A stretch of DNA of 20,639 bases, taken from positions 1 through 20,639 of IMG/VR virus record IMGVR_UViG_2713896773_000003. One strand, given 5' to 3'. Position 1 is the first letter of the stretch; each line of letters opens with the position of its first letter. The stretch comes from a virus (taxonomy: Duplodnaviria > Heunggongvirae > Uroviricota > Caudoviricetes). This document shows positions 4,746 through 19,204 of the stretch, piece after piece. The notes beneath the pieces were generated by a model, which did no database searches, was not told the origin of the DNA, and saw only the letters and a program-made list of their open reading frames with translations. The translations under genes were made by a program, and so were the position numbers.

Positions 4746-4796
4746 CATCTCTAACGCTGGGAATCCGTTCAGTCGTTCCGAAGCCAAAAAAATTCA

Positions 4797-4826: not shown

Positions 4827-5088
4827 ATTTCTTTGTGGCCTAAATCGCTTCGAGCCAAAAAAACGCGGAGAACGACATCACCCCTCTCCGCAATAACGAC
4901 TCAATCTCATACCCGCTTGTCTTTCTTTTATCCACAAAGAGGTAAAGCCATAACTTAGTGGAAATGGTAACAGCTAAAAACTATTTGAAAAGCTAATTAT
5001 TTTTTGCATCAACTGGCTATTCTTAAGGATTGTTTAATTTTTTGCTTTCCTAGCGAGAAAGAAGCTCCGGAAACTATCAATCAATACA

Positions 5089-5113
5089 AGGCTGCCGTTC
5101 GGCGGCCTTTTTT
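5089..5113 (+). terminator. Second rho-independent terminator upstream of the lysis genes
   Basis: Stem AGGCTGCC (5089-5096) / GGCGGCCT (5101-5108): 8 bp with one G-U pair, loop GTTC, T-run 5108-5113. It sits 40 bp before the holin start. Confidence 0.6.
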
Positions 5114-5152
5114 ATTCCTAGCAACAGCACTCGCACAAAGCGAGGTGAGAGT

Positions 5153-5377
5153 ATGTATCGCATGGACAAACTAACCACTGGTGCTGCCTATGGCGCTTCA
5201 GCCGGGAGCATCCTAAACGGCATGTTGAATGCCTACAGCCCCGAGCAGTGGAACGCTATCGGCGTGCTGGTGGGTATCATCATTGCCGTAATGACGTATC
5301 TGACAAATCTCTATTTCAAAATCCGCGAAGACAACCGCCGCAGCAGGAGCCGAGATGAACCCAACGTTGAGGAATAA
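5153..5377 (+). CDS. S: Class II holin, phage-21 S-like pinholin, with dual start (Met1 and Met4)
   Basis: GAGGTGAGAG upstream. N-terminus MYRMDK gives two in-frame starts differing by a positive charge, the holin/antiholin arrangement. Two TM segments. C-terminus [17 protein letters not shown] matches my memory of phage 21 S ([14 protein letters not shown]). 3' end overlaps the endolysin start. Confidence 0.85.
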
Positions 5378-5849
5378 GCTGGTGGGTGCCATTGTTGGCG
5401 GATCAGGGGCAATCACTATTGCTGCAGTAATGCTGGGCAATGCGGATGGACTCGAAGGTCGGCGTTATTACGCCTATCAGGATGTGGTCGGCGTCTGGAC
5501 CGTTTGCGATGGGCACACTGGTACCGACATTCGCCGCGGTCACCGATATACCGACAAAGAGTGTGACAACCTGCTTAAGGCAGATCTGCGAAAGGTGGCA
5601 AGCGCCATCGACCCGCTGATCAAGGTTCGCATCCCTGAGCCAACCCGCGCCGCGCTTTACTCCTTCACCTATAACGTTGGCTCTGGTGCTTTTGCCAGCT
5701 CGACGCTGCTGAAGAAGCTGAACTCCGGTGATGTTCCGGGTGCGTGTAAAGAACTGCAGCGCTGGACTTATGCTGGCGGCAAGCAGTGGAAGGGGCTGAT
5801 CACCCGGCGCGAGATTGAGCGTGAAGTCTGCGAGTGGGGCCAGAAATGA
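5355..5849 (+). CDS. R: SAR endolysin (T4-lysozyme-like muramidase with N-terminal signal-anchor-release domain), phage-21 R-like
   Basis: Glycine and alanine-rich weakly hydrophobic N-terminus [20 protein letters not shown] (SAR domain). Catalytic E-x8-D-x5-T arrangement in [17 protein letters not shown]. Conserved [26 protein letters not shown] tail. Overlaps holin 3' end and Rz start. Confidence 0.9.
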
Positions 5850-6310
5850 GCCGATTAACCGCAATCATCTGCGCTGTCGTTATCTGCCTGCTGGTTTCCA
5901 TGGCCTGGGCCATTAACCACTACCGCGACAACGCCATCACCTACAAAGACCAGCGCGATAAAGCCACAAAGAACCTCCGCCTGGCTAATGCCACCATCAA
6001 AGATATGCAGACCCGCCAGCGTGATGTCGCTGCACTGGATGCCAAATACACGAAGGAATTGTCCGATGCGAAAAAGACCATTAACGATTTGCGTCGTGAT
6101 GTCGATTCTGGCGCTAAACGGCTGCGCATCGCCGCAACCTGCCCTGGAGTGCCAAAAGCCACCTCCTCCACCGGCGTGGATGATGCAGGAGCCCCCGAAC
6201 TTACTCCAGACGCTCGACGGAATTATTTCGATCACCGGGACGGAATCGCAACCGCTGACAAAATGATTCGCGGCATGCAGGACTACATCAAAGAGCAGTG
6301 TCTTAAGTGA
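5846..6310 (+). CDS. Rz: Rz i-spanin (inner-membrane spanin subunit)
   Basis: ATG 5846 overlaps the endolysin stop (ATGA); the track start at 5834 is an upstream GTG. N-terminal TM helix [20 protein letters not shown] followed by a charged coiled-coil periplasmic domain. Rz1 is embedded in the +1 frame. Confidence 0.8.
6066..6266 (+). CDS. Rz1: Rz1 o-spanin (outer-membrane lipoprotein), fully embedded in Rz in another frame
   Basis: Within track ORF 5988..6266. ATG 6066 is preceded by AAGGAA. Signal peptide with lipobox LALNGC, then the proline-rich stretch [14 protein letters not shown], nearly identical to the lambda Rz1 motif [14 protein letters not shown] as I recall it. 66 aa. Confidence 0.8.
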
Positions 6311-6329
6311 TTCGTCACCCAAATAACAG

Positions 6330-6354
6330 AGCCTGACTTCGGTCGGGCTTTTTT
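6330..6354 (+). terminator. Rho-independent terminator after the lysis cassette
   Basis: Stem AGCCTGAC (6330-6337) / GTCGGGCT (6342-6349): 8 bp with one G-U pair, UUCG tetraloop, T-run 6349-6354, 20 bp after the Rz stop. Confidence 0.65.
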
Positions 6355-6381
6355 ATTCCCAGAAGAAGCAGGAGAAGAAGC

Positions 6382-6582
6382 ATGTTAACAGTAAAAGTAA
6401 TGTCGCCAGGTGGCGGTGAAGAGATTCATTGCGGGTTGAGTGTAGGGTTCAATCCGGGGCAGCAGAGCATCGCGGTATCGGGAATGGACAAAAATGTATT
6501 CCTGAAACCTGGCGAGGTCGCCTACGTGATGAACCAGAACGGGAAGACGGTATCTCGTTACGAGCATAATGACCGCCAGTAG
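6382..6582 (+). CDS. Hypothetical small protein (66 aa), function unknown
   Basis: GGAG (6371-6374) 7 nt before ATG 6382, in a purine-rich leader. Glycine-rich, probably beta-rich small protein; no motif recognised. First gene of a three-gene set between the lysis terminator and the terminase. Confidence 0.55.
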   Translation: MLTVKVMSPGGGEEIHCGLSVGFNPGQQSIAVSGMDKNVFLKPGEVAYVMNQNGKTVSRYEHNDRQ

Positions 6583-6681
6583 CCATTCCAAAGCTCACCT
6601 GCTGGTGGGCTTGATAATGGATATCCCCCTGAGCGGATAAATCAAAAATAACCCCTGCAACGGATAATGACGGAGCAACAG

Positions 6682-7053
6682 ATGGCAAAAGCCAAATGGC
6701 ACAAACTCCCGGCGTTCACCATTCCGCTGTTTCAAAGTGCACACGTCTACCTCGCAACAACCAGAGAACAGTTTCAGCACGCTGATAAATTCCTTGGCGG
6801 CAGCGGGGATGAGAAGCCATTCAATCTTGGGATTGCAAGCAACTATGAAAACACTGATACGGGAGAGCGAGTTTACCTGATTGGAGTATTCGATCAGCAG
6901 ATATCAACTCTCGTTCACGAATGCGCTCACGTATGTTTTTACGTCTGCTCTGATGTGGGCGTAACGACCAATCCGGAAGACGCAAACGAAACCTACTGCT
7001 ATCTGCTCGACAGAATGTTTTCGGCATTTTTGCCGTATATAAAACAGGATTAA
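6682..7053 (+). CDS. Hypothetical protein with HExxH motif (HECAH), possible small zinc-metallopeptidase-like protein
   Basis: Track ORF 6667..7053. ATG 6682 has GGAG (6672-6675) at 6-nt spacing, whereas ATG 6667 lacks a spaced RBS. Motif TLVHECAHV with a Glu about 19 residues downstream (PEDANE), a gluzincin-like arrangement. Only a 3-nt gap to the next gene. Confidence 0.55.
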   Translation: MAKAKWHKLPAFTIPLFQSAHVYLATTREQFQHADKFLGGSGDEKPFNLGIASNYENTDTGERVYLIGVFDQQISTLVHECAHVCFYVCSDVGVTTNPEDANETYCYLLDRMFSAFLPYIKQD

Positions 7054-7056
7054 CTC

Positions 7057-7695
7057 ATGGTGAACGAAGACGAGCGCAGGCCACTTCCACCAGTTAATTT
7101 CATTGGCCCTGATAACTGGCAGCCCTACACCAGATTGATTCCCGCCAATGAAGTGCATGACTGGATAAGCCATCAAATCCTCAGCGATAGCGGAAGCATC
7201 CATAACCCAGACCACGCCCATTTAATGGAAGCTGATTTGTGTTTTATGTGGGCTTCTGACTCATTCGCGAAGAAAGGGCGCTACGTTCTCGGACAGGCCG
7301 AACAGGTAATGCTCCGCGCAGGTGGTTGGCAGAAAGCCAGAATGGAACAGCAGATGTATGAATGGTTCGGGCGCATCCCGAAGTTCATCATCACGCTGGC
7401 AGCCGACTACTGCTCACAATGCAGCGACCTTGAATTCTGCGCCCTGGTAGAGCATGAGCTTTACCACATTGCCCAGGCCACCGATGATTTCGGCGCACCT
7501 AAGTTCAACAAAGAGACCGGGCAGCCAGTTCTCACATTGCGCGGCCACGACGTCGAAGAATTTGTCGGTGTTGTGCGTAGATACGGGGCGAGCACTGAAG
7601 TGCAAGAACTGGTGGACGCAGCCAATCAACCTGCAGAGGTGGCAAAACTTAACATCGCCAGAGCGTGCGGGACGTGCATGCTGAGACTGGCGTGA
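7057..7695 (+). CDS. Putative phage metallopeptidase-domain protein (HExxH motif HELYH, SprT-like or phage metallopeptidase-like)
   Basis: CAGGA RBS 7 nt upstream; coupled to the previous gene. Motif CALVEHELYHIAQATDDFG with Glu about 20 residues after, plus cysteine pairs CSQCSDLEFC and CGTC. Family identity is from memory. Confidence 0.6.
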   Translation: MVNEDERRPLPPVNFIGPDNWQPYTRLIPANEVHDWISHQILSDSGSIHNPDHAHLMEADLCFMWASDSFAKKGRYVLGQAEQVMLRAGGWQKARMEQQMYEWFGRIPKFIITLAADYCSQCSDLEFCALVEHELYHIAQATDDFGAPKFNKETGQPVLTLRGHDVEEFVGVVRRYGASTEVQELVDAANQPAEVAKLNIARACGTCMLRLA

Positions 7696-7726
7696 ATTTT
7701 TGACTGATTATGACAGGCGGTAAGCG

Positions 7727-8215
7727 ATGGCTGCATTAAAGGGAGAGGTGAAAGCGTTTATCGTTCAATCGCTTGCATGCTTCGACACGCCGTCGCAAGT
7801 GGTCGATGCCGTCAAAAAAGAATTTGGCATCACGATCCCCCGTCAGCAGGTTGAATCTCACGACCCGACGAAAGCAAACGGCAAAGGTCTGGCGAAAAAA
7901 TGGGTCGAGATGTTCAACGAAACCCGCGAGCGCTTCCAGACGGAAATTGCAGAAATCCCGATCGCTAATAAGGCTTATCGGCTTCGCGTACTGCAACGAA
8001 TGTCTGTGACCGCAGAGAACATGAAAAACCTCGGCATGACAGCTCAGCTTCTCGAACAGGCAGCAAAAGAAGTTGGGGATGTCTACACCAACAAACAGAA
8101 GGTTGAGCAAAGCGTTGTTGCCACCCATAACGTTATGCCGGTCCCGTCCTGCGATAACGTCGACGACTGGGAAGCAGCAGCACAGAAACAGCAGAGCGAG
8201 GTTCTTGGTGGATGA
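7727..8215 (+). CDS. Putative terminase small subunit
   Basis: A 162-aa gene immediately upstream of, and overlapping (ATGA), the terminase large subunit. The N-terminus MAALKGEVKAFIVQSLACFDTPSQVV resembles small-subunit proteins of enterobacterial phages as I recall them. Assignment is mainly positional. Confidence 0.65.
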   Translation: MAALKGEVKAFIVQSLACFDTPSQVVDAVKKEFGITIPRQQVESHDPTKANGKGLAKKWVEMFNETRERFQTEIAEIPIANKAYRLRVLQRMSVTAENMKNLGMTAQLLEQAAKEVGDVYTNKQKVEQSVVATHNVMPVPSCDNVDDWEAAAQKQQSEVLGG

Positions 8216-9783
8216 ATTACAAAGCCGTCTGGAAACCTTTGCCGGGATCGCAATCGCTCTCCCTGAGTTGCCCGTGTAACGAAATCCTCTACGAAGGTAC
8301 GCGAGGCCCCGGTAAAACCGCCGCGCAACTGGCGCGCTTTCGTCGCCTGGTTGGTCTGGGCTATGGCTCGTTCTGGCGTGGCGTCATTTTCGATACCGAG
8401 TATAAGAACCTCACCGATATCATTACCCAGTCAAAGCGCATGTATCGCCTGTTTAACGACGGCGCACGCTATCTGGCGTCAGCATCTGAACTGCGCTGGG
8501 TGTGGCCGACTGGAGAGGAGCTGCTGTTCCGCTTCGGGAAAGAAGAGGGTGACTACTGGGACTATCACGGCCAGGAGTTTCCGTTCATCGGCTTTAACGA
8601 GCTGACCAAGCAGCAGTCCCCTGAATTCTACGAGATGATGTTCTCTTGCCGGCGCTCCTCGTTCCGGCCTGAGAATTACCCGCTGGGTGACGGTTCGTTA
8701 CTTAAGCCTATTCCCCTGGAGACGTTCAGCACCACTAACCCGTTTGGCATCGGCCACACCTGGGTGAAGAAACGCTTCATCGAGCCAGCGCCCCGCGGCA
8801 CCATCATTCGTGAAACGCAGCAGGTGTTTAACCCGCAAACTGAGCGCGAAGAGGATGTGACGCTGACGCGCGTGGCTATTCACGGCTCGTTCAAAGAGAA
8901 CCCGTATCTGGATCCCCAGTACATCGCAACGCTGATGGCCATCAAAGACCCGAACCGCCGCAAAGCTTGGGTAGAGGGCTCCTGGGATGTCACCAGCGGT
9001 GGGCGCTTTGACCACCTGTGGAATGCATCGCTGCACGTCATTAAGCCGTTCCGCATCCCGGATAGCTGGACGGTTGACCGTTCCCATGACTGGGGTGAGT
9101 CGAAGCCGTTCTCTAACCTCTGGTGGGCGCGAGCCGACGGTACTGCCGCAGAACTGCCTGATGGTCGCCAGTTCTGCCCGCCTGCCGGGTCGCTGATCCT
9201 GATTGGCGAGTGGTATGGCTGTCCACCTGACGAGCTGAACAAAGGGCTCAATATGAGCTCGACAAACGTCGCCAAGGGTGTGGCCTGGATTGATAAGCGG
9301 CTGATGGGCGAAGAGCTGCCTGAACCTGAAGAGATAAAACTCAATGGGATAACTCAGGGGCAACTGAACATCATGCCCGGTATCTGCAAAAAGGTTGTGC
9401 CGGGCCCAGCTGACGGTGCCATCTACAACACTGGCGATGACGAGCTCTCTATTGCCCAGAAGATGGAATCGCAGGGCGTTAAGTGGGTTCCATCCAACAA
9501 GAAACCGGGATCGCGCGTAAACGGAGCGGCCCTCTTTGCTGACATGCTGGAGGCCGTCCTTGAGGGTAAGAAGCTGGAATCTGGTGTACCTGAGAAACCA
9601 GCATTCTACGTCTTCGACTATTGCCGCGGCTGGATAAGCCGTGTTCCGGTGCTCGTTCGCGACAGTAAGAACCCTGATGACGTAGACACTCAGCAGGAAG
9701 ATCACGACTGGGATGGCACTAGATATGCCGTCCTGCATTCACCGCCGAAGAAAGTCGGCAAAGTCACCAACCTACGGATCTAA
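8212..9783 (+). CDS. Terminase large subunit (ATPase plus nuclease)
   Basis: Walker A-like YEGTRGPGKT near the N-terminus, 523 aa, directly upstream of the portal gene. The first about 25 residues (SQSLSLSCPC) are low-complexity, so the true start could be an internal non-ATG codon. The 346-aa antisense ORF 8698..9738 is rejected. Confidence 0.9.
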   Translation: MNYKAVWKPLPGSQSLSLSCPCNEILYEGTRGPGKTAAQLARFRRLVGLGYGSFWRGVIFDTEYKNLTDIITQSKRMYRLFNDGARYLASASELRWVWPTGEELLFRFGKEEGDYWDYHGQEFPFIGFNELTKQQSPEFYEMMFSCRRSSFRPENYPLGDGSLLKPIPLETFSTTNPFGIGHTWVKKRFIEPAPRGTIIRETQQVFNPQTEREEDVTLTRVAIHGSFKENPYLDPQYIATLMAIKDPNRRKAWVEGSWDVTSGGRFDHLWNASLHVIKPFRIPDSWTVDRSHDWGESKPFSNLWWARADGTAAELPDGRQFCPPAGSLILIGEWYGCPPDELNKGLNMSSTNVAKGVAWIDKRLMGEELPEPEEIKLNGITQGQLNIMPGICKKVVPGPADGAIYNTGDDELSIAQKMESQGVKWVPSNKKPGSRVNGAALFADMLEAVLEGKKLESGVPEKPAFYVFDYCRGWISRVPVLVRDSKNPDDVDTQQEDHDWDGTRYAVLHSPPKKVGKVTNLRI

Positions 9784-9787
9784 TCCC

Positions 9788-11191
9788 ATGCCTGATATTT
9801 CAACCCCAAATCTGGACTATGGGAACATGGTCGAGGCGTGGGATATCAACGATGCCCTGATGGGCGGCACGCTCTATATGCGACAGCTGGGCGAGCAATA
9901 TCTACCGCGCTGGCCGAAAGAAGACAAAGAGGACTACAAAAAACGCCTCGCCGTGGCCACGCTTCTGCCAGCCTACGAAGAGACCATTAAGCAAAACATC
10001 GGGCGTGTATTCGCCGAGCCCATTAAGCTTGCCGAGAATGTGCCTGATGAGCTGCGAGAGTATGCGAAAAACTTCGACCTTGAGGGGACGCGCCTGGACG
10101 TATGGGCGCAGGCATTCTTCGGTCTGGCGATGCAGTATGGACTCTCCCACGCGCTGGTGGATTATCCCAGGGTGGACACCGAAAAGGTGAAAACCAAAGC
10201 GGAAGAGAAAGCTACTGGCGCGCGCCCATACGTCACCATGCTCAATCCCCGGCAGGTGATCGGATGGAAGTCGAAAATGGTAGACGGCAAAGTGGTGCTG
10301 ACCGAGCTGCGTATCAAAGAGGTAGTTATCGAGGACGGCGACGACTTCGGGCAGACAAAGGTCGAGCAAATTCGTTATCTGACACCTGGAATGGTGCAAA
10401 TCTACCGCAAGTCGAAAGGTATCGATGGGGCGGCGAACTGGGAGAAGTTCGACGAATGGACAACATCTCGTAAGGACATAACACTGGTGACGCTCTACAC
10501 CAAGCGCACCGGGTTTATGTGTGGTTCACCTCCACTGCTCAATATGGCTCTGCTGAACATCAAGCACTGGCAGAGTCAAAGCGAGCAGGACAACATCCTG
10601 CATGTCGCCAGGGTGCCGTTGCTCACGGTGTTCGGTTTGGAAGAGGGGCAAGAGCTGATAATTGGCTCGTCTTCAGCTACGTCGTTCACTGATCGGCAAA
10701 AGCAGGGTCTGGAGTACGTCGAGCATACAGGCTCCTCCATCGGTGCTGGTAAAGAGTCGCTGGCAGAACTTGTGGAGCAGATGCGCCAGGCTGGTGCGAA
10801 GCTGCTTCGTACGGAAAACACCTCTACCAAATCGGTAGACCAGACCTCTGAAGAGAAAATGCAGGAGCAGTCACCGCTCTACACCATGGCTACCAGCCTT
10901 GAAGATGCGATCGACAACATTCTGCAAATCATGGCCGAGTACATCGGCGAGAAAGATGGTGGCAACGTTGATGTTCGCACTGAGCTGGATGTCGAATCGA
11001 CCGTATTCAATCCGTCCGCCGCGCTTGCCATCCAGGCACTGCGCCAGGGTGGTGATATCCGTCGAGCTGATGCGATTAAATCGCTACAGAAGTTGAACAT
11101 TATTGATGCCGATGCGGATCCTGATGTGGTTCTGAGCGAACTGCTGGCTGAGTCCGCATCGCTGAGTGACCCGCCGCCGGACGAGGTGTGA
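9788..11191 (+). CDS. Portal protein
   Basis: Track ORF 9713..11191. ATG 9788 lies 5 nt after the terminase stop and is preferred over 9713, which would overlap the terminase by about 70 nt. The 467-aa size and position between terminase and head morphogenesis gene are typical of a portal. Confidence 0.8.
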   Translation: MPDISTPNLDYGNMVEAWDINDALMGGTLYMRQLGEQYLPRWPKEDKEDYKKRLAVATLLPAYEETIKQNIGRVFAEPIKLAENVPDELREYAKNFDLEGTRLDVWAQAFFGLAMQYGLSHALVDYPRVDTEKVKTKAEEKATGARPYVTMLNPRQVIGWKSKMVDGKVVLTELRIKEVVIEDGDDFGQTKVEQIRYLTPGMVQIYRKSKGIDGAANWEKFDEWTTSRKDITLVTLYTKRTGFMCGSPPLLNMALLNIKHWQSQSEQDNILHVARVPLLTVFGLEEGQELIIGSSSATSFTDRQKQGLEYVEHTGSSIGAGKESLAELVEQMRQAGAKLLRTENTSTKSVDQTSEEKMQEQSPLYTMATSLEDAIDNILQIMAEYIGEKDGGNVDVRTELDVESTVFNPSAALAIQALRQGGDIRRADAIKSLQKLNIIDADADPDVVLSELLAESASLSDPPPDEV

Positions 11192-11192
11192 T

Positions 11193-12296: not shown

Positions 12297-12316
12297 CTGA
12301 ATAAGGTAATAAAACA

Positions 12317-12781
12317 ATGACTCAACATATTGGCGTGAAGCTCATCAATGCTTACCCGATGACCCGTCTGGCATATAACGACTTTCGTGGTTGGGAGTTA
12401 CCAAGTGACGAAAACGGAAGTGATGAAGGTTATCTCGTCGAGTATCTGGATGGCGGAAAGCCAAACACCGATCGCTTCAACGGGTATGTGAGCTGGAGTC
12501 CGAAAGATGTGTTCGACAAAGCCTACCGACCAGTGGCGGGGCTTAGCTTCGGACTGGCTGTCGAAGCCCTGAAATCAGGCAAGCGTGTCACCCGCGCAGG
12601 CTGGAACGGCAAGGGCCTGTGGCTTGAGCTGGTCCAGCAGTCGCCATCTGTGGACCTGCCGTACATTCGTTTAATTTATCCTGTGCCGGGCAATGGTGCT
12701 ATGCCATACCCAAATGGCGCTCGCGTGCCTTGGGCACCAAGCCAAACCGACGTCTTGGCTGATGACTGGCAAATTCTCTAA
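12317..12781 (+). CDS. Two-domain accessory protein; C-terminal half DUF2829-like (the family of Thoeris anti-defence Tad2), N-terminal half a possible degenerate duplicate
   Basis: C-terminal motifs LAVEALKSGKRVTRAGWNGKGLWLEL and VPWAPSQTDVLADDWQIL match my recollection of the DUF2829 signature. N-terminal segment GYVSWSPKDVFDKAY echoes the C-terminal W-P-x-D-V-L-x-x-D-W element. Sits between head morphogenesis and scaffold genes, a classic moron site. Confidence 0.6.
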   Translation: MTQHIGVKLINAYPMTRLAYNDFRGWELPSDENGSDEGYLVEYLDGGKPNTDRFNGYVSWSPKDVFDKAYRPVAGLSFGLAVEALKSGKRVTRAGWNGKGLWLELVQQSPSVDLPYIRLIYPVPGNGAMPYPNGARVPWAPSQTDVLADDWQIL

Positions 12782-12804
12782 ACCAGTTGCTTGGGGGGTG
12801 GTCT

Positions 12805-13014
12805 ATGCGAGATGACGATTTTCACCATGTGGGCGATGGCCGCGGTAAGCGCCGAGTGTTCGTTAACGGCAACGAGGTCAAGCGCTGCGTATGGGCGGAT
12901 GTTAAGCGAGGAATAGCATGCTTCTACCCATACCCCATTCGGGTCCATAAGCGAAAGCGCGATGAAGTCTATACCCGCAAACTGCGCGGCGTAATAACCG
13001 TCGAATTTATCTAA
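12805..13014 (+). CDS. Hypothetical small basic protein (69 aa)
   Basis: Track ORF 12787..13014. ATG 12805 is preceded by a G-rich stretch (GGGGGGTGG). No motif recognised. Followed immediately by a terminator hairpin. Confidence 0.5.
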   Translation: MRDDDFHHVGDGRGKRRVFVNGNEVKRCVWADVKRGIACFYPYPIRVHKRKRDEVYTRKLRGVITVEFI

Positions 13015-13015
13015 C

Positions 13016-13041
13016 AGGCTGCCTTCGGGTGGCCTTTTTTA
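13016..13041 (+). terminator. Rho-independent terminator closing the accessory pair
   Basis: Stem AGGCTGCC (13016-13023) / GGTGGCCT (13028-13035): 8 bp including two G-U pairs, UUCG tetraloop, T-run 13035-13040. Confidence 0.6.
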
Positions 13042-13121
13042 TGCCTGCCGCTGAGCGGATGCGACGCGGTGACCGGGTCGGATGACCTATTACCAATGGC
13101 CGGAAGGCTGGAGCAAAAACA

Positions 13122-13874
13122 ATGAAACTGAAACTTGATGCTAACGGAAATGTGGTCGTTGAAAACGGTATGCCTGTGTACATCCATGATGATGGCAAAG
13201 AAATCCCGTTCGACGCAGCCGCAGCGATGACCAAAATCACCTCCCTGAATGGTGAAGCTAAAACTCACCGTGAAGCGAAGGAGGCGGCGGAAGCCAGTCT
13301 CGCGAAATTCTCTGGCATCACCGATCCGACCAAGGCGCTCGAAGCCCTGGAGATGATGACCAAAATCGACCAGAAAAAACTGATCGACGCTGGCGCTGTT
13401 GACCAGGTTAAGGCTGAGATTACCAAGGTATTCCAGCAGCAGCTGGATGAAGCGAACGGCAAGACCAAACAGCTCGAAAGCCAGCTCTACGACGAGATGA
13501 TCGGCGGGCGCTTCGGTGGCTCCAAATTCATTTCAGAGAAGATGGCGATCCCGGCTGAGTTCGTGCGTTCCCACTTCGGTCAGAACTTCAAAATCGAAGA
13601 CGGCAAAGTCGTGGCGTACGACGGGCAGGGCAACAAGGTGTTCTCTCGCACCAAGCCAGGCGAGTTAGCCAGCTTTGATGAGGCCCTGGAGTCTCTGGTC
13701 GAGTCGCATCCGCAGAAAGATTACATCCTCAAAGCGTCCGGTAACAGCGGCGGCGGTTCTCACCAGTCGCAGCACCAGGCCGGGCAAAAAACCATGAAAC
13801 GCGATGCGTTTGATTCCCTGGATAACGCTGGCAAGCAAGCAGCGCTGAAAGACGGCGTCAGCATCGTCGATTAA
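13122..13874 (+). CDS. Putative scaffolding protein
   Basis: A 250-aa acidic, alpha-helical-looking protein (runs of A, E, K, Q) directly upstream of the major capsid gene; GGAG about 9 nt upstream of the ATG. Confidence 0.6.
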   Translation: MKLKLDANGNVVVENGMPVYIHDDGKEIPFDAAAAMTKITSLNGEAKTHREAKEAAEASLAKFSGITDPTKALEALEMMTKIDQKKLIDAGAVDQVKAEITKVFQQQLDEANGKTKQLESQLYDEMIGGRFGGSKFISEKMAIPAEFVRSHFGQNFKIEDGKVVAYDGQGNKVFSRTKPGELASFDEALESLVESHPQKDYILKASGNSGGGSHQSQHQAGQKTMKRDAFDSLDNAGKQAALKDGVSIVD

Positions 13875-13891
13875 ATCGAAAGGAGCCATAA

Positions 13892-15031
13892 ATGGCAGGC
13901 AATACCCTTACTGGTCTGATCCCGACCATCTATACCGCGCTGTACGTAGTGTCCCGCGAGCAAACTGGTTTTATTCCTGCGGTGGCGCGTGACGCGAAAG
14001 CGGATGCTGCTGCAAAAGACCAGACCGTACGTGCGCCAGTCGCACCTGCAGCCACCACTGAAGATATTGTCCCTGGACCTTCAGCGCCTAATTCTGGCGA
14101 CCAGACCATCGGTGGTGTGGATGTCAAAATCACCAAATCCAAAATGGCCCCGGTGAAATGGAATGGTGAAGAGCAATTGGCTCTGGGCCCGGCTGGTACC
14201 TACAACACCATCCTGGCTGACCAGTTCAAGCAGGCTTTCCGTGCGCTGGCGAACGAAGTGGATGCGGATCTCGCTGCGCTGTACCTCAACTCCTCCCGCG
14301 CTGTTGGCGCGCCAAAGAATACCCCGTTCAGCATCAAAGACGATCTGACTGATGCTGCGTTGGCGCGTCAAATCCTGACCGATAACGGTGCGCCGACTAC
14401 TGATTTGCGTATGGTGCTGGGTGGCGAAGCGATGGCATCCATCCGTGGTAAACAGGCTGTACTCTTCAAAGCGAACGAAGCGGGAACCGACCAACTGCTG
14501 CGTGAAGGTGTTATCGGTCGCATCATGGGCTTCAACCTCCACGAATCCTTCAGCATCAAGCGTACCGCGAAAAGCGCTGCTGCTGGCTATAAGGTCAATG
14601 GCGCGAAGAAAGAGGGCGATATCATCATCGCTATCTCTGCTGGCACCGGCGGTATTGCTGCAGGTACTGCGGTGAAGTTCGCCGGTGATGACAATCAGTA
14701 TCTGGTCGTTGCGGCTACGTCTTCCACTATCACTATTAGCGCGCCGGGCCTCCGTCAGGATCTGGCAGACCAGGCTGATGTCACTGTGTTGAGCGAATTT
14801 GTACCGAACATGGCGTTTGACCGCGGGGCATTCCTGCTGGCCAGCCGTACCCCGGCGATGCCTGAAGGTGGCGATACTGCTGATGACGTCATGAATGTGA
14901 CCGACCCGGTATCTGGCATCACCTTCCAGGTGGCGCTGTACCGCCAGTACCGTCAGGTGCGTTATGAAGTGGGCCTGGCATGGGGTGTGGCTGCTGTGGC
15001 GCCACGTCATTCCGCCATCATCATGGGTTAA
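13892..15031 (+). CDS. Major capsid (coat) protein
   Basis: A 379-aa ORF with a strong RBS (AAAGGAG), immediately after the scaffold gene and followed by a terminator hairpin. Composition is typical of coat proteins. The 329-aa antisense ORF 14081..15070 is rejected. Confidence 0.8.
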   Translation: MAGNTLTGLIPTIYTALYVVSREQTGFIPAVARDAKADAAAKDQTVRAPVAPAATTEDIVPGPSAPNSGDQTIGGVDVKITKSKMAPVKWNGEEQLALGPAGTYNTILADQFKQAFRALANEVDADLAALYLNSSRAVGAPKNTPFSIKDDLTDAALARQILTDNGAPTTDLRMVLGGEAMASIRGKQAVLFKANEAGTDQLLREGVIGRIMGFNLHESFSIKRTAKSAAAGYKVNGAKKEGDIIIAISAGTGGIAAGTAVKFAGDDNQYLVVAATSSTITISAPGLRQDLADQADVTVLSEFVPNMAFDRGAFLLASRTPAMPEGGDTADDVMNVTDPVSGITFQVALYRQYRQVRYEVGLAWGVAAVAPRHSAIIMG

Positions 15032-15035
15032 CCCA

Positions 15036-15058
15036 GGGGGCTTCGGCCCCTTTGTTTT
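15036..15058 (+). terminator. Rho-independent terminator after the major capsid gene
   Basis: GC stem GGGGC (15037-15041) / GCCCC (15046-15050) around a UUCG tetraloop, followed by TTTGTTTT (15051-15058); probably partial, to enrich capsid transcript. Confidence 0.6.
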
Positions 15059-15069
15059 CAGGAGGCCCA

Positions 15070-15270
15070 ATGGCCGGATTAACCAAAGAGCAGAGCGCGC
15101 AGCGTGAGGCTGAAAAGCTTGCCGCGCAGAACGGCGCTGAACAAACAGGTATTGAGCTGGTGGCTATGATGCGAGATACCCCGGAGTTCCCCGGCGGTCC
15201 GCTGAGCGCTGAGGTTCACCCTGACGAAGTCGATAACTGGCTGGCGCTGGACTGGCGACTGGAGGAGTAA
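15070..15270 (+). CDS. Hypothetical small acidic protein (66 aa)
   Basis: Track ORF 14980..15270 overlaps the capsid gene. ATG 15070 has AGGAGG (15060-15065) upstream and lies just after the terminator. No motif recognised. Confidence 0.5.
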   Translation: MAGLTKEQSAQREAEKLAAQNGAEQTGIELVAMMRDTPEFPGGPLSAEVHPDEVDNWLALDWRLEE

Positions 15271-15272
15271 CT

Positions 15273-15584
15273 GTGAGCGATAAAGATATTGAGCAGGAAA
15301 TTCAGGCCAAAGGCTTGAACGCGCCGCGCGTTACGCTGGGCGAGTTGAAGGCGAATATTAAGCATGCCGAGATCGTGAAGCACGTATCCGTCACCGGGCA
15401 GGTGCTTCGCTGGGCGGTCATCACCACTCAAAACGGATTCGCAGTAACAGGGAATCCGTCGTGCTCAGTTTCCTCCGCTAACGACAACGCTGAAATTGGC
15501 GAGAAAATTGCTATTGAGAACGCCGAAAGCGAGTTGTGGGCGTTGATGGGATATGCGTTAAAGCAGAAGCTTTTCGAAGCCTGA
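15273..15584 (+). CDS. Gp49-like protein (phage N4 gp49 / Sf6 gp66 family, function unknown)
   Basis: GTG start with GGAGGAG (15261-15267) 5 nt upstream. Motif NGFAVTGNPSCSVSSANDNAEIGEKIAIENAESELWALMGYALKQKL fits my recollection of the family signature (G.SAC, NFD.EIG..IA..NA...W.LEGY.L). Confidence 0.55.
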   Translation: MSDKDIEQEIQAKGLNAPRVTLGELKANIKHAEIVKHVSVTGQVLRWAVITTQNGFAVTGNPSCSVSSANDNAEIGEKIAIENAESELWALMGYALKQKLFEA

Positions 15585-15597
15585 GAGGAGCTCTGAG

Positions 15598-16080
15598 ATG
15601 ATTAATGCCGATCCCCATTCGTCTGACTTCAACAGCTATGCCAGCGTTGGTGATCTGCGCGCGTTCGCTGCGGGGCGCGGATACACCATCCCTGCTGAAG
15701 ATGGCGAATGCAGCCAGATGCTGATGCAGGCAATGGACTTTCTGGAAGGGAAGGCCTGGCGCGGTCAGCGTTCCAGCGCATCACAGCCTCTATCCTGGCC
15801 GCGTTCCGGCGTGCGCTTCGATGGTGTTGACCTGTCGAATGATGCGATTCCACAGCGCCTGATTGATGCTCAATGTCGCCTGGCCATCGAATCGCAGGAG
15901 ATTGACCTCACCCCGTCGGTCGCTGGCGGTGGGGCGGTTACGATGGAGCGCGTCGAGGGTGCGGTAACAGTCCAGTATGAGCCGGGAACGAATAAAGCTT
16001 CTCCGTCATTCCCATGGTTCTATTCCGCACTGCGCGGGCTTGTAGTGGGCGGCAACCAGGTCCGGGTCGAAAGGGGGTAG
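15598..16080 (+). CDS. Putative head-tail connector protein (gp6-like / DnaT-like fold)
   Basis: A 160-aa ORF in the post-capsid connector position. Motif WRGQRSSASQPLSWPRSG resembles connector-like proteins annotated as DnaT-like as I recall them. Confidence 0.5.
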   Translation: MINADPHSSDFNSYASVGDLRAFAAGRGYTIPAEDGECSQMLMQAMDFLEGKAWRGQRSSASQPLSWPRSGVRFDGVDLSNDAIPQRLIDAQCRLAIESQEIDLTPSVAGGGAVTMERVEGAVTVQYEPGTNKASPSFPWFYSALRGLVVGGNQVRVERG

Positions 16081-16081
16081 C

Positions 16082-16435
16082 ATGGCAATCGACTATCGCC
16101 GCATGCGCGCGACCGCGACCCGACTGCTGACCGAGAACGGGAAGGCATATCAGCTTACCCGCGGCGGCGGCACCATCCGTGACCAGTTCGGCAAAGAGGT
16201 CACCACCCCGGCCATTACCGCGACCGTAACCGGTGTTATCACCGAATACTCCTCCCGCGAAATCGACGGTTCCCTGATCGCCACCGGCGACAAGAAGCTG
16301 GCGGCCACTTTCGAGACGGAAGTGCGCATCGATGACCGCATCGAAATCGACAGCAAAAAGTGGCGCGTGGTACAGCCGAATCCGGTTAAGCCTGCCGATG
16401 TGCTGATCTCCTACAACATCCAGCTGAGGGCGTAA
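16082..16435 (+). CDS. Putative head closure or neck protein
   Basis: A 117-aa ORF starting 2 nt after the previous stop; assignment by position and size only. Confidence 0.45.
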   Translation: MAIDYRRMRATATRLLTENGKAYQLTRGGGTIRDQFGKEVTTPAITATVTGVITEYSSREIDGSLIATGDKKLAATFETEVRIDDRIEIDSKKWRVVQPNPVKPADVLISYNIQLRA

Positions 16436-16437
16436 CT

Positions 16438-17037
16438 ATGGTGGGGTCTGTTAATCAGCCGTTCCTGGCTGCCATTCAGCTGTTCGTGGATGGCTCGAAG
16501 CAGGAGATGGACGAGGTGGTGCGCCGGACGGGTATTAAAATCCTCGCTCAACTGGTTGAGATGTCCCCGGTGGGCCAACCGGATATCTGGCAGGTCAACC
16601 AGACCGCGACGGCGTACAACACTGCGGTGCGGGAGCATAACGCGACCCTGCGTGATGACCCGGCTAATCTGACCAAATCAGGACGACTTAAGCGCGGCCT
16701 GCGCGTCAACGACTCGATGGACATCAAAAAGCCTGAGGGCTATGTCGGCGGGCGGTTTAAAAACAACTGGTATGTGGGCTTTGACAGCCAGCCAAGCCAA
16801 TCCAACGACACCCCCGACGCTTCCGGCCAGGGTTCCAACTCCCGCGGTCTGGCAGTGCTCGAGGTGTTCCGGGTAGGGCAGGTCAGCTCGATTTTCTTCA
16901 CCAATAATCTGCCATATGCGGCAGCACTGGAGAACGGGCATTCCGGCCAGGCACCCGGCGGCATGGTGGGCATCACTGCGCTGGATGCCGCGCAGTTGTT
17001 CCGTGAGGCAATGAGCGAGGTGCGCAATGGCCAGTGA
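16438..17037 (+). CDS. Putative neck or tail-completion protein (HK97 gp10-like position)
   Basis: A 199-aa ORF tightly packed with neighbours; assignment by position only. Confidence 0.45.
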   Translation: MVGSVNQPFLAAIQLFVDGSKQEMDEVVRRTGIKILAQLVEMSPVGQPDIWQVNQTATAYNTAVREHNATLRDDPANLTKSGRLKRGLRVNDSMDIKKPEGYVGGRFKNNWYVGFDSQPSQSNDTPDASGQGSNSRGLAVLEVFRVGQVSSIFFTNNLPYAAALENGHSGQAPGGMVGITALDAAQLFREAMSEVRNGQ

Positions 17038-17476
17038 CCAGTCAATGCGAATTGCTGAACTACTGGAGAGCCGCATTGCGGTTATCTGCTTATCGCTTGG
17101 GCTGCCCGTAGCCTGGCCGAACATACCGTTTACTCCCCCGGATAGCTCACCATACGGGCGTGTTTATGTTCTGCCGGCACAGACGGTGGGGCAAGACCTG
17201 GAAGGTCAATTGCGAACCTATCAGGGCATCCTGCAGCTCAACATCATTGCGCCAGCAGGCAGCGGCGTGACGCAGGCCAGAGGGCTGGCTAAATCTGTCG
17301 CTGATGCATTTCCTGAAGGGCTTGCGCTGGTGGATGGTGACCTGACTGTTTATATCAATGGGCCGCCGCAGGTGAGACAACCCATCCAGGACCGGCCAAC
17401 CTCGGCGTCCAACGGGTCCAGTGGCTCCATAACCTACACCATTCCCGTCAGCATGCAGTACCGCGCTGACTACTGA
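17027..17476 (+). CDS. Putative tail terminator or tail-completion protein
   Basis: A 149-aa ORF overlapping the upstream gene by 11 nt, immediately before the major tail gene and followed by a terminator hairpin. Confidence 0.5.
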   Translation: MASDQSMRIAELLESRIAVICLSLGLPVAWPNIPFTPPDSSPYGRVYVLPAQTVGQDLEGQLRTYQGILQLNIIAPAGSGVTQARGLAKSVADAFPEGLALVDGDLTVYINGPPQVRQPIQDRPTSASNGSSGSITYTIPVSMQYRADY

Positions 17477-17499
17477 CCCGCCAGATGGCGGGTTTTTTA
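17477..17499 (+). terminator. Rho-independent terminator-like hairpin before the major tail gene
   Basis: Perfect stem CCCGCC (17477-17482) / GGCGGG (17487-17492) with loop AGAT, followed by TTTTTTATT (17493-17501). Confidence 0.6.
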
Positions 17500-17522
17500 T
17501 TACCTAAATTCAGGAGAGTGCT

Positions 17523-18455
17523 ATGGCATTCGCAATCCCTAACGGCTCGCGTGTTAACGTGGCCAAGGCCTATCAGGCTCCCATCACCTTTACCGCTGCC
17601 TCTAACGCTACTGAATGCGAACTGACTGTTGCATCTGCCGCTGGCATCCTGGCGGGCGACGTAGTGCAGGTGAGCTCCGGCTGGCTAAAACTCGATAATA
17701 TGGTGCTGCGCGTTAAATCCGTAGCCGGTACCAAAATCGTGCTGGATTCGTTCGATACCTCTGACACCACCAAATTCCCGGCAGGCACTGGCGCGGGCAC
17801 GCTGCGTAAAATCGACACGTGGATCACGATGCCGCAGGTGATGACCCTCTCCACAGAGGGTGGTGACCAGCAGACCATCAGCGTGCAGTTCCTTGAAGAC
17901 GATAAGGCCCGTACCATCCCGACCTTCAAAAACGCCGTGGTGCAGGTCTACACCTTCGCGCACGATCCGCTGCTGGCAATTTACAAGCGTCTGAGTGAAC
18001 TTGACGAATCCAGCGACACCACTGCTGTGTGGTTCCATAACCCGCGCGGCAAAGCGGACCGTTATTACTCTGCCAAAGTGTCTTTCCAGAAGGTGCCTAA
18101 GACCGAAATCAACGCCGTGGAAAGCAACGAAGCGCGCATGAACTTCGAATCGGATATGCAGATTTACCCGATCGCCGATTCATCCGTTACGCCGCTGGCG
18201 TTCCTGACTGATCTGCCATCAACCAAAGCAGTTAGTGTTGGAGATGCGCTCGATTTAGCCGTCGTTATGCAAGGCGGCTCAGCCCCTTACACCTACGTGT
18301 GGAAGAAAGGAAGCTCCGCAATTCCGGGCAAAACCGCCTCGACGTTCAACATTTCGTCTGTCTCATCCGGTGATGCTGGCGTTTATACCTGCGAAGTCAC
18401 TGACGCCGCAGGCAAGACCCTAACGTCGGCGGCATGCACCGTTACTGTCAGCTAA
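17523..18455 (+). CDS. Major tail (tube) protein with C-terminal Ig-like domain
   Basis: AGGAGAG RBS. 310 aa. C-terminal about 85 aa carry Ig-like hallmarks (PYTYVWKKGSSAIPGKTASTFNISSVSSGDAGVYTCEVTDAAGKTLTSAACTVTV). Lies upstream of the chaperone and tape-measure genes. Confidence 0.75.
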   Translation: MAFAIPNGSRVNVAKAYQAPITFTAASNATECELTVASAAGILAGDVVQVSSGWLKLDNMVLRVKSVAGTKIVLDSFDTSDTTKFPAGTGAGTLRKIDTWITMPQVMTLSTEGGDQQTISVQFLEDDKARTIPTFKNAVVQVYTFAHDPLLAIYKRLSELDESSDTTAVWFHNPRGKADRYYSAKVSFQKVPKTEINAVESNEARMNFESDMQIYPIADSSVTPLAFLTDLPSTKAVSVGDALDLAVVMQGGSAPYTYVWKKGSSAIPGKTASTFNISSVSSGDAGVYTCEVTDAAGKTLTSAACTVTVS

Positions 18456-18463
18456 CCAATCAG

Positions 18464-18486
18464 GCCCGGTTCGCCGGGCTTTATTT
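18464..18486 (+). terminator. Rho-independent terminator after the major tail gene
   Basis: Perfect stem GCCCGG (18464-18469) / CCGGGC (18474-18479) with UUCG tetraloop, followed by TTTATTT. Confidence 0.65.
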
Positions 18487-18671
18487 CGCAATGAGTACCG
18501 CTGGCGAATTTTCTGTATTCGCATTACCCATCTTTTCAAACTGCGCCTTCACACGCGCTCTCTAACCAAGAACCTTTCAGAAAGCGTTCCTGAGAACTGC
18601 CGTTAGTGCCGGTGGGCCTCTTGGGGCGGCTTTTCTGTGTGAACAGGTTCGCTTTTTAAAAGGTACACACC

Positions 18672-19202: not shown

Positions 19203-19204
19203 TA

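Follow-up and report, generated by a model that had tools for sequence, protein, structure and literature searches.

The stretch of DNA analysed here (20,639 nucleotides, hereafter the window) is the late region of a lambdoid prophage with all genes on one strand; its Q gene, late promoter pR' and lysis genes are of the phi80 type, and its head and tail genes are of the HK639 type. The Q antiterminator gene (3865-4674, + strand; Pfam PF03589 Antiterm, E = 1.3e-34) lies in a segment (3769-6141) with 98.2% identity to phi80, whose record names the gene product as the late transcription antitermination protein. The intergenic region between Q and the holin gene, including pR', is identical to phi80 at 480 of 481 positions. 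Coordinates of pR' (4717-4745, + strand) were carried over from the phi80 record annotation, with the -35 hexamer TTGCAT at 4717-4722, the -10 hexamer TAGATT at 4740-4745, and a Q-binding element between them. A scan of the window found three sigma-70-like sites in 20 kb, compared to 12.9 ± 4.0 expected, and no sigma-70-like promoter after any of the terminators described below. The original prediction had placed these hairpins at operon boundaries, but as no such promoter lies 3' of any of them, they are not operon ends.

A strict terminator scan, which detects only perfect stems and requires a T-tract, returned nine + strand sites and nothing on the - strand. Eight of them are strong (-11.3 kcal/mol or better), whereas a weak ninth site (-8.2 kcal/mol), at 11478, is intragenic. 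The eight strong terminators are all on the coding strand, each in one of the few genuine intergenic gaps, and each consists of a tetraloop (four UUCG, one UACG, and one each of GUUC, UAAC, and AGAU) on a perfect, G+C-rich stem of 6-11 bp, followed by a T-tract. Their folding free energies lie between -11.8 and -18.2 kcal/mol, and comparison with shuffled sequences gives z-scores of -2.9 to -5.8 for all hairpins except 15035 (z = -1.45), because its G5/C5 composition folds even when shuffled; by the folding-energy check proposed with the prediction, folding of the eight is thus not weak.

Two of the terminators follow pR' in tandem, both on the + strand like all features below. Terminator tR'-1 (4796-4830, hairpin 4796-4821; ΔG -18.2 kcal/mol, z -4.8) has an 11-bp stem, the loop UAAC, and a T7 tract, and a pR' transcript stopped here would measure ~75 nt. 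Terminator tR'-2 (5088-5116, hairpin 5088-5109; -15.9, z -4.2), 37 nt upstream of the holin gene, has a 9-bp stem, a GUUC loop with a C-G closing pair, and the tail TTTTTTATT. Both are sequence-identical to annotated phi80 terminators (JX871397; 42070-42098 and 42362-42385, respectively), of which they are direct orthologues. The terminator after the Rz/spanin gene (6328-6357, hairpin 6328-6351; -16.9, z -5.8) has a C(UUCG)G loop and the tail TTTTTTATT, whereas phi80 has a different hairpin with the loop GAU after Rz.

The remaining five sites lie in the structural region. T_A (13016-13042, hairpin 13016-13035; -12.8, z -2.9), upstream of a scaffold-like DUF6651 gene, has a C(UUCG)G loop and the tail TTTTTTAT. 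T_B (15035-15058, hairpin 15035-15052; -12.4), after the major capsid gene, folds as GGGGGC-UUCG-GCCCC with the interrupted tail TTTGTTTT. T_C (17475-17501, hairpin 17475-17494; -15.1, z -5.0) starts within the stop codon of the tail-terminator gene and has the loop AGAU and the tail TTTTTTATT. T_D1 (18462-18486, hairpin 18462-18481; -14.1, z -3.1), after the tail tube gene, has a G(UUCG)C loop, whose G-C closing pair lacks the special cUNCGg stability, and the weak tail TTTATTT. Finally, T_D2 (19204-19228, hairpin 19204-19219; -11.8, z -3.1), 13 nt upstream of the chaperone gene, folds as ACCCGC-UACG-GCGGGU, a C(UACG)G hairpin, with the tail TTCGTTTTT. Orthologues of T_A, T_C, T_D1, and T_D2 with the same stems and positions are annotated in HK639 (NC_016158) at 4901-4922, 9019-9040, 10003-10029, and 10850-10873, respectively, although the post-tube loop is UACG in HK639 and UUCG in the window, and the HK639 hairpin corresponding to T_B (6915-6934) is unannotated in that record.

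The five hairpins originally named (near 5089, 6330, 13016, 15036, and 18464) are therefore all present on the + strand, just 3' of stop codons, and "at least five" was borne out by three further hairpins of the same class, at 4796, 17475, and 19204 (the latter with a UNCG loop). The C(UUCG)G form is found at 6328, 13016, and 15035, but 5088 has a C-G-closed GUUC loop rather than UUCG, and 18462 is closed by G-C in place of the C-G pair of the extra-stable cUUCGg motif. Likewise, the proposed TTTTTTATT tail does not fit every hairpin. Five copies of TTTTTTAT are present in the window (0.67 expected), each time at a terminator (4821, 5108, 6349, 13035, and 17493), and perfect T6-7 tracts are found at 5/8 sites, whereas the tracts at 15035, 18462, and 19204 are interrupted and these hairpins may terminate poorly.

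Comparison with 22 related prophages from about ten enterobacterial genera (23 genomes in the site counts) revealed that position, stem, and T-tract are kept across these genera. At four of the five structural-region terminators a UNCG loop is retained in 70/79 cases: 17/20 at T_A, 17/21 at T_B (with UUCG in 17/21 genomes), 19/21 at T_D1, and 17/17 at T_D2. Most differences fall on the free second loop position (U, C, A, or G), and stem changes retain pairing (e.g. AGGCUGCC/GGUGGCCU, /GGCAGCUU, /GGCGGCCU, and AGGUCGC/GCGGCCU). In contrast, T_C has no UNCG loop in any of 22 cases and presents eight different loops on a near-invariant stem in the same genomes, which argues for selection on the loop at the other four sites. 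Almost every genome retains the T-tract at T_A, T_B, T_C, and T_D2. The post-tube hairpin is retained without any T-tract in L021 and L024, and L020 and L028 likewise have it, although the T-tract-requiring scan did not call it there, which suggests that hairpins of the T_D1 type have a role other than termination, such as 3'-end protection.

Variable genes were found at some of these sites. The slot between the tail-tube and tail-assembly-chaperone genes is bounded exactly by the 18462 and 19204 hairpins. Homology breaks at 18485/18486, the end of the 18462 T-tract, in all eight relatives of the first comparison and is restored from 19204, where the next hairpin begins (from 19223 in the one relative with an empty slot). 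Among the 23 genomes, the slot is empty (n = 7) or holds a KilA-N gene (n = 6), a DUF1983-like gene (n = 8; 226-322 aa, with an extra 111-aa ORF in three), or unrelated membrane-protein genes (n = 2), i.e. at least four different classes of cargo or none. T_D2 is present in all 16 cargo-holding genomes and once without cargo (L029). In the window, the cargo gene (18672-19202, + strand) encodes a 176-aa KilA-N domain protein (Pfam PF04383, E = 3.8e-15); this gene has a GC content of 0.47-0.50 versus 0.55-0.59 in its flanks and is replaced or missing in most relatives. It is preceded by a conserved structured leader of ~130 nt (18543-18671, + strand), comprising a small GCGC hairpin (18543-18558) and a rod-like hairpin of ~93 nt (18572-18664), the 3' base of which covers the Shine-Dalgarno sequence AAAAGG. 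This leader occurs in at least 149 phage records, has no Rfam entry, and may be new.

A second accessory insertion (12317-13014, + strand) lies just upstream of T_A and comprises a Tad2-like (DUF2829) gene (12317-12781; Pfam PF11195, E = 4.6e-20) and a 75-aa ORF (12787-13014). HK639 homology stops at 12292 and restarts at 13023, and the Tad2-like gene is missing from HK639 and at least seven further relatives, with no match to it in HK639, L009, L016, L017, L019, L020, and L021, among others. The original reading of the hairpins as boundaries of morons or accessory genes thus holds for the 18462/19204 slot and the 13016 insertion, and the suggested scan of related prophages confirmed the hairpin-bounded slot. 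It is also supported by 4796-type and 6328-type hairpins in IMG/VR contigs, beyond whose T-tracts the sequence diverges. The reading does not extend to 4796 and 5088, rejected as moron boundaries because they are the terminators directly 3' of the phi80 late promoter, nor to 17475, which has no variable gene alongside in 22 relatives. Furthermore, no terminator accompanies the inserted Gp49 gene (15273-15584) or, in L005 and L007, an inserted HTH gene that lies on the reverse strand between the genes for scaffold and capsid. A hand calculation over the eight junctions covered by most genomes found 3/4 junctions with a terminator to be variable versus 1/4 without (one-sided Fisher p = 0.24), so a general rule that terminators mark variable genes is not demonstrated. 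Overall, the earlier observation was mostly right, and its moron-boundary interpretation is partly supported.

Coincidence was considered as an explanation of the shared loops. As a word, CTTCGG shows no overall enrichment in the window (15 found vs. 12.0 expected), which would fit coincidence, as would a set of only eight sites and a pattern picked out after the sequence was seen. Under a common scan, however, all eight terminators of the window have tetraloops (4 UUCG, 5 UNCG), compared to 24 of 60 terminator-like sites in 300 kb of E. coli K-12 (1 UUCG, 2 UNCG; Fisher p = 4e-4 for UUCG, for this sample) and 137 of 260 sites in 1.08 Mb of enterobacterial (pro)phage contigs selected via an unrelated motif (19 UUCG, 35 UNCG; p = 2e-3). 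UUCG among the window terminators is beyond chance in this post hoc comparison, and the 70/79 versus 0/22 contrast supports this independently, so that coincidence is effectively refuted by the orthologue data. It is also very improbable that the hairpins are copies of one element, either duplicated or dispersed within the genome as a small mobile repeat. A repeat search groups 5089-5129, 6330-6370, and 13016-13056 as one 41-nt family (73% and 66% identity), and 5088 and 6328 match at 10/14 nt following TTTTTTAT, but much of this similarity is forced by the terminator grammar of GC stem, UUCG loop, and T-tract. Moreover, the eight sites have different stems, hairpins of the 6328 type are followed by unrelated sequence in other phages, and every structural-region site forms its own orthologue lineage, stable across genera. 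What stands of the proposed reused design is therefore a common loop class kept in relatives, not literal copying, and the UNCG loops are probably a selected feature rather than the signature of one copied element.

The exact coincidence of breakpoints with hairpin edges in every comparison raises the question of whether the hairpins are short conserved linker sequences for homologous cassette swapping, which would make them the cause of the mosaic joints and not just their markers. In IMG/VR contigs, identical hairpins of the 4796 and 6328 types keep their upstream flank and diverge to different downstream partners right after the T-tract (the 6328 type follows Rz in five contigs), and the ACCCGC-UNCG-GCGGGU hairpin closes at least three unrelated cargo types. 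Yet the arms of 16-26 nt are short for RecA- or Red-type exchange, the Gp49 and HTH insertions have no hairpin at their edges, and the same outcome would be expected if joints arose by random illegitimate joining and were then selected, making a causal role unlikely. Also rather unlikely is that the internal hairpins are mainly mRNA 3'-end stabilisers or processing barriers that set the abundance of capsid versus tube messages in a polycistronic late RNA. The weakest T-tracts do follow the most abundant structural genes, capsid (15035) and tube (18462), the post-tube hairpins of L020, L021, L024, and L028 fit such a role, and UNCG caps are known from nuclease-resistant, very stable hairpins (PMC3972237). 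A pure stabiliser needs no T-tract, though, and the conservation of T-tracts at four sites and the perfect tracts at five of the eight weigh against it, while stabiliser and terminator roles are not mutually exclusive.

We consider it most probable that the hairpins act as ordinary intrinsic (Rho-independent) terminators, distributed over the one late transcription unit of the prophage. Such terminators are a known kind of feature and textbook phage biology, and the phi80 and HK639 records already carry annotations of the orthologues. UUCG hairpins acting as Rho-independent terminators and lying between T4 genes, with short G+C-rich stems and C-G-closed UUCG or UNCG caps, are described in PMC3972237 (citing Tuerk et al. 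1988; d'Aubenton Carafa et al. 1990); one window site differs in its G-C closing pair, and UNCG is more frequent in this phage family (5/8 sites; 70/79 orthologues at four sites) than in the host and prophage samples. The arrangement of a Q gene followed by a constitutive late promoter resembles lambda-type pR'-tR' control (6S RNA; StxS in Stx phages), in which a strong terminator 45-80 nt downstream yields a short RNA in lysogens unless Q is present (PMC7547250), although the window has two tandem terminators; we found no experimental data on the phi80-type short RNA. The slot resembles morons of HK97 and HK022, such as HK97 gene 15, which lies between the genes for the tail chaperone and the tape measure, in adding a tail-operon gene of lower GC that is missing from relatives and has its own terminator (PMC3594210). 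It differs in its position, one junction further upstream and flanked by the tube and chaperone genes, and in having a conserved structured RNA leader in place of a sigma-70-type promoter, none being found in the scan.

Termination, its efficiency, and read-through by Q are what we infer from these comparisons. By analogy with lambda, 82, 21, and Stx phages, pR' would fire constitutively, and without Q, RNA polymerase would halt at 4796, with 5088 as a back-up, releasing the short RNA of ~75 nt. UNCG caps may allow short stems of 6-8 bp to fold fast and stably, which would suit intergenic gaps of 38-46 nt, and the hairpins behind the capsid and tube genes, the two most abundantly expressed structural genes, probably also protect processed mRNA 3' ends. 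An added gene that brings its own terminator is the classical moron arrangement. Cargo may accumulate at terminators because a gene placed behind one terminator and carrying another leaves translationally coupled neighbours undisturbed, and because joints just past a T-tract would survive selection. After induction, Q would load at pR' and render the polymerase terminator-resistant, so that it reads through all eight sites and the lysis, head, and tail genes are expressed. The six internal terminators would consequently act only on polymerase not modified by Q and may shield neighbouring late genes from stray or cargo-driven transcription in the lysogen. The Q antiterminator would thus make the terminators downstream of it conditional.

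A strict scan of the window for intrinsic terminators, limited to perfect stems of 5 bp or more, loops of 3–8 nt, T-rich tails, and folding energies of −8 kcal/mol or better, returned nine + strand sites and no − strand sites. One of the nine, at 11478, is weak and intragenic. The remaining eight + strand sites are strong and intergenic, starting at 4796 (loop UAAC), 5088 (GUUC), 6328, 13016, and 15035 (each C(UUCG)G), 17475 (AGAU), 18462 (G(UUCG)C), and 19204 (C(UACG)G). Six of them are found 0–20 nt 3′ of a stop codon, and 4796 and 5088 instead lie in the leader of the late promoter pR′. All eight have the hairpin of an intrinsic terminator, with perfect 6–11 bp stems, 4-nt loops, and energies of −11.8 to −18.2 kcal/mol, and seven fold far better than shuffled sequences (z = −2.9 to −5.8). 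The hairpin at 15035 reaches z = −1.45 because its G5/C5 composition folds whatever the order. An uninterrupted T6–7 tract directly follows the stem at 4796, 5088, 6328, 13016, and 17475, and the tract is interrupted at 15035 (TTTGTTTT), 18462 (TTTATTT), and 19204 (TTCGTTTTT). The motif TTTTTTAT occurs five times in the window against 0.67 expected, each time at a terminator.

The original prediction had proposed that at least five hairpins (5088, 6328, 13016, 15035, and 18462) share a UUCG- or GUUC-type tetraloop with G-C closure and a TTTTTTATT tail, as a reused design marking the boundaries of inserted accessory genes (morons). All five hairpins are real and lie where they had been placed, and the weak folding that it named as counting against them was not observed. 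The common architecture held in part. Four of the five carry UUCG, but 5088 does not, and 18462 has the "wrong" closing pair, G-C as in all 20 of its orthologues, compared to C-G at 6328, 13016, 15035, and 19204; the TTTTTTATT tail is present at five of the eight sites and broken at the three with interrupted tracts. Three sites of the same class (4796, 17475, and 19204) had been overlooked. A U-N-C-G loop caps five of the eight hairpins (UUCG at 6328, 13016, 15035, and 18462; UACG at 19204), and 5088, 4796, and 17475 have loops of other types.

The window represents the late region of a lambdoid prophage with every gene on the + strand. Q, the late promoter region, and the genes for the holin, lysozyme, and Rz lie within 3769–6141, a segment with 98.2% identity to phage phi80; positions 8122–20639, encoding the terminase, portal, head, and tail proteins, are ~87% identical to phage HK639. 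Pfam searches identified Q (PF03589, E = 1.3e-34), a holin, a lysozyme, Mu-F-like minor head, P22-type coat, tail terminator, tail tube, and tail assembly chaperone proteins, a metallopeptidase, a DUF6651 scaffold-like protein, and a DUF2280 protein at the small-terminase position; a tRNA/tmRNA scan of the window found none. The closest complete Escherichia coli prophage is located in NZ_LR536430 (96%), and one IMG/VR contig is 98.2% identical across 11182–20639. For the head-tail module, 22 relatives were compared, comprising HK639, seven E. coli prophages, and 14 prophages of Enterobacter, Atlantibacter, Kluyvera, Leclercia, Pseudescherichia, Silvania, Yokenella, Siccibacter, and further genera. 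By far the most divergent gene of this module is the ORF at 15071–15270, just 3′ of the capsid terminator, with 35–65% identity and very different lengths in nearly all relatives (98% in L003 only), while its neighbours are mostly 85–99% identical.

The position of all five structural-region terminators is conserved among these relatives, as are their T-tracts. Upstream of the scaffold-like gene (13016), the loop is UUCG in 6, UCCG in 11, UCAG in 2, and UCCC in 1 genomes; behind the capsid gene (15035), it is UUCG in 17, UUAG in 3, and CUCG in 1; behind the tube gene (18462), UUCG in 10, UACG in 9, and UAAG in 2; and upstream of the chaperone gene (19204), UACG in 8, UCCG in 8, and UGCG in 1. 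In total, 70 of the 79 loops at these four sites are U-N-C-G, and the variation is concentrated at the single position left free by the UNCG fold. The fifth site, 3′ of the tail-terminator gene (17475–17494 in the window), has a near-invariant 8-bp stem (GACCCGCC/GGCGGGUU) with occasional pair-preserving substitutions, but eight different tetraloops in 22 genomes (AGAU, ACCU, GCCC, ACCC, GCUC, ACUC, AAAC, and AUCC), none of them UNCG. Since the loop drifts here in the same genomes, nothing forces loops to stay constant. To judge from these alignments, the conservation at the other four sites is the pattern expected of purifying selection on the UNCG cap. Stem substitutions keep the pairing, mostly via G-U intermediates, and the stem at the 13016-type site has been re-paired in HK639 and in the relative L021. 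In a Leclercia MAG (L020, 743–804), two hairpins of this type are arranged in tandem, with UCCG and CCCG loops.

This preference is a property of the loop context and not of the CTTCGG word, which is not significantly enriched across the window (15 found vs. 12.0 expected). The same scan, counting sites of −10 kcal/mol or better, was applied to 300 kb of E. coli K-12 and to 1.08 Mb of (pro)phage contigs from enterobacteria that had been collected for a different purpose. In the K-12 sample, 60 terminator-like sites (median stem 11 bp) included 24 tetraloops, with 1 UUCG, 2 UNCG, and 5 GNRA loops, whereas the 260 unique (pro)phage sites (median stem 9 bp) included 137 tetraloops, with 19 UUCG, 35 UNCG, and 2 GNRA loops, UUCG being the commonest loop of all. 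UNCG-capped terminators therefore make up 13% of the sites in the temperate-phage sample and 3% in the host sample. Within these samples, short UNCG-capped terminators are more frequent in the temperate phages of enterobacteria than in the host, and the phage studied here is at the high end: all eight of its sites have tetraloops, with 4 UUCG and 5 UNCG, an excess of UUCG over both K-12 (Fisher p = 4e-4) and the prophages (p = 2e-3) that is based on small numbers, a pattern chosen post hoc, and a scan that sees perfect stems only.

A shared loop could reflect descent from one terminator that was copied along the genome, as the phrase "one reused design" implies. A direct-repeat search lends this some plausibility, as 5089–5129, 6330–6370, and 13016–13056 form the top repeat family of the window (41 nt, 73% and 66% identity), and the hairpins at 5088 and 6328, which flank the lysis cassette, also match at 10 of 14 nt beyond the tail. 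Literal copying was nevertheless rejected, as the eight stems differ and every site has its own stable orthologue lineage. In other phages, moreover, the DNA 3′ of 6328-type hairpins is unrelated. Convergence on a compact terminator grammar probably explains the data better, and common descent of the repeats at 5089, 6330, and 13016 is the less probable alternative.

The clearest association with accessory genes is found at the junction between the tail tube and chaperone genes. In all eight relatives of the first round, homology to the window ends at 18485/18486, where the T-tract behind the 18462 hairpin stops, and is restored from 19204, where the next hairpin begins, or from 19223 in L009, whose slot is empty. 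Across 23 genomes, this slot is empty (41–68 nt) in 7 and contains a KilA-N gene in 6, including the window (18672–19202, + strand), a DUF1983-annotated gene of 226–322 aa in 8 (with an extra 111-aa ORF in three), and unrelated membrane-protein genes in 2. A hairpin of the 19204 type, ACCCGC-UNCG-GCGGGU, is present in all 16 cargo-bearing genomes. The KilA-N cassette (18487–19228) is absent from collinear relatives, has its own terminator, and deviates in base composition, with a GC content of 0.47–0.50 over 18650–19249 vs. 0.55–0.59 on both sides. The morons originally described were cargo genes of tail operons that carry their own terminators (PMC3594210), and the slot fits this definition except that no promoter was found: a consensus scan of 18486–18671 gave no sigma-70-like site, and the aligned cargo upstream regions contain no conserved −35/−10 pair, although weak or activator-dependent promoters could escape detection. 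A second case is an insert at 12317–13014, flanked by the minor head gene and the terminator at 13016 and consisting of a Tad2-like gene (12317–12781) and a 75-aa ORF. The 154-aa Tad2-like product has a Thoeris anti-defence 2 domain (PF11195/DUF2829) at residues 77–154, and its gene has no match in HK639, L009, or several other relatives (at least seven besides HK639). It is a candidate anti-defence cargo gene that would be expressed with the late genes.

As a general rule, the link between hairpins and moron boundaries is weaker. In its favour, besides the hairpin-bounded slot and the Tad2-like insert, IMG/VR contigs with 4796- and 6328-type hairpins keep the upstream flank and diverge straight after the T-tract. 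On the other hand, 17475 adjoins nothing variable, and 4796 and 5088 have a different role, as discussed below. Insertions also occur in places where there is no terminator. A Gp49/Sf6 gp66-family gene (PF13876, 15273–15584), inserted between a small post-capsid ORF and the adaptor gene and shared only with L003 and L022 among the relatives, has neither a terminator nor an intergenic gap at its edges, and in two relatives an HTH gene on the reverse strand, situated between the genes for scaffold and capsid, likewise has no terminator at its edges. Among eight well-covered junctions, three of four with a terminator are variable vs. one of four without, a difference that falls short of significance (one-sided Fisher p = 0.24, calculated by hand). 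Terminators and insertions alike may simply need a real intergenic gap.

The two hairpins behind Q can be placed in a known regulatory context. The Q-to-holin intergenic region is identical to that of phi80 at 480 of 481 positions, and the phi80 record annotates pR′ (−35, Q-binding element, and −10) followed by two "putative rightward transcription terminators", which correspond to 4796 and 5088; neither is thus a moron boundary. The order of a Q-family protein gene, a late promoter with a Q-binding element, and a terminator is that predicted for a lambda-type Q antitermination module. In lambda and Stx phages, the pR′ promoter is active at all times, and in lysogens its transcripts end directly downstream as a short RNA (PMC7547250). 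By this analogy, 4796 and 5088 would be regulatory tR′ terminators targeted by Q. The other six terminators are inside one late transcription unit, and a consensus scan of the window found no sigma-70-like promoter after any terminator. Positions 1–20000 contain 3 promoter-like sites, fewer than in shuffled sequence (12.9 ± 4.0), a scarcity consistent with selection against internal promoters in the late operon. During lytic growth, Q-modified polymerase would read through the six internal terminators; in the lysogen, these would act on unmodified polymerase and insulate the late genes and cargo. They may also double as protective 3′ hairpins. Such a stabilizing role is suggested for the post-tube hairpin by comparison with relatives, because L021 and L024 keep it without any T-tract and because it is also kept in L020 and L028, where the terminator scan does not call it. 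In L021 and L024 (5931–6030), this UUCG hairpin is followed by extra DNA ending in a different terminator, with a leader downstream.

That leader (~130 nt, 18543–18671 in the window) lies upstream of the KilA-N cargo gene and directly behind the 18462 terminator. Conservation is high over the whole 185 nt from this terminator to the start codon of the KilA-N gene, a stretch also shared with the region upstream of phi80 rha, which is likewise right behind a terminator. The leader was also found at L001 8321–8414 and at more than 100 IMG/VR loci (L038–L156). A pattern of 27 fixed bases taken from this 185-nt stretch had matches in at least 119 contigs of IMG/VR. A BLAST search started from the phi80 version retrieved at least 149 phage records in GenBank; Stx2a-converting phages account for 73 of these, and HK106, HK639, and epsilon34 are also among them. 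Almost none of the phage records searched has an annotation at the leader, and a few have a "hypothetical protein" over the match. Among the matches listed, the downstream genes are mutually unrelated, encoding Rha (39), three KilA-N groups (18, 13, and 3), HNH (5), Ant-like, GIY-YIG-like, and other proteins, and a terminator-like hairpin is located at most 115 nt upstream in 82 of 86 unique copies. Between the 18462 terminator and the leader, an inverted repeat (GCGAAT-TTTCTGT-ATTCGC, 18503–18521) is kept in all KilA-N cassettes of the slot (the window, L017, L019, L021, L024, and L025); it may serve as an operator or form a small hairpin.

All variants of the leader are predicted to fold into a small GCGC hairpin and a ~95-nt rod, at whose base CCUUU pairs with AAAGG of the Shine-Dalgarno region. 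Across 43 distinct sequences, pairing in the core helices reaches 99.6% vs. 40–52% with the partners slid, six pairs show double changes vs. 0–1 in the slid controls, and U-G wobble pairs that never vary suggest a sense-strand RNA. Rfam assigned no family to the window at the gathering threshold, an E-value scan of 18440–18700 gave sub-threshold noise only, and six leader-bearing loci yielded only an unrelated int-alpA match. Neither Rha nor antirepressor or lysis-region elements are mentioned in a paper on EHEC anti-sRNAs (PMC4104026). A U-rich run in the leader is unlikely to be an attenuator terminator because it is base-paired and co-varies with the opposite strand (GAGAA/UUUUC vs. GAGGA/UUUCC). 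It is possible, if somewhat short of probable, that terminator and leader form the common 5′ end of a family of accessory cassettes in enterobacterial temperate phages, with the leader controlling the cargo post-transcriptionally. Our guess is that the leader would block access to the Shine-Dalgarno sequence, with release once the long hairpin is opened or is cut in the manner of an RNase III site.

The hairpins are real but of a known kind, because orthologous sites are already annotated in the phi80 and HK639 records, UUCG-capped hairpins are a classical feature of T4 mRNA and of terminators (Tuerk 1988 and d'Aubenton Carafa 1990, as cited in PMC3972237), and the original morons precede this case. 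A literature search on HK639 and on rha with IHF found nothing on these sites. The understanding of termination and of morons is unchanged and the practical value is modest. Still, the loop census across orthologues adds a small piece of new supporting evidence in the form of a natural experiment, in which UNCG appears to be held by selection at four terminators and the loop is free at a fifth in the same genomes. In HK639-like prophages, the terminators are precise landmarks for slots of accessory-gene exchange, which aids annotation and the mining of cargo such as the Tad2-like putative anti-defence gene, KilA-N genes, and membrane proteins. The leader could matter more than the terminators, as it is widespread, including in Shiga-toxin phages, and precedes genes of the Rha, KilA-N, and antirepressor types.
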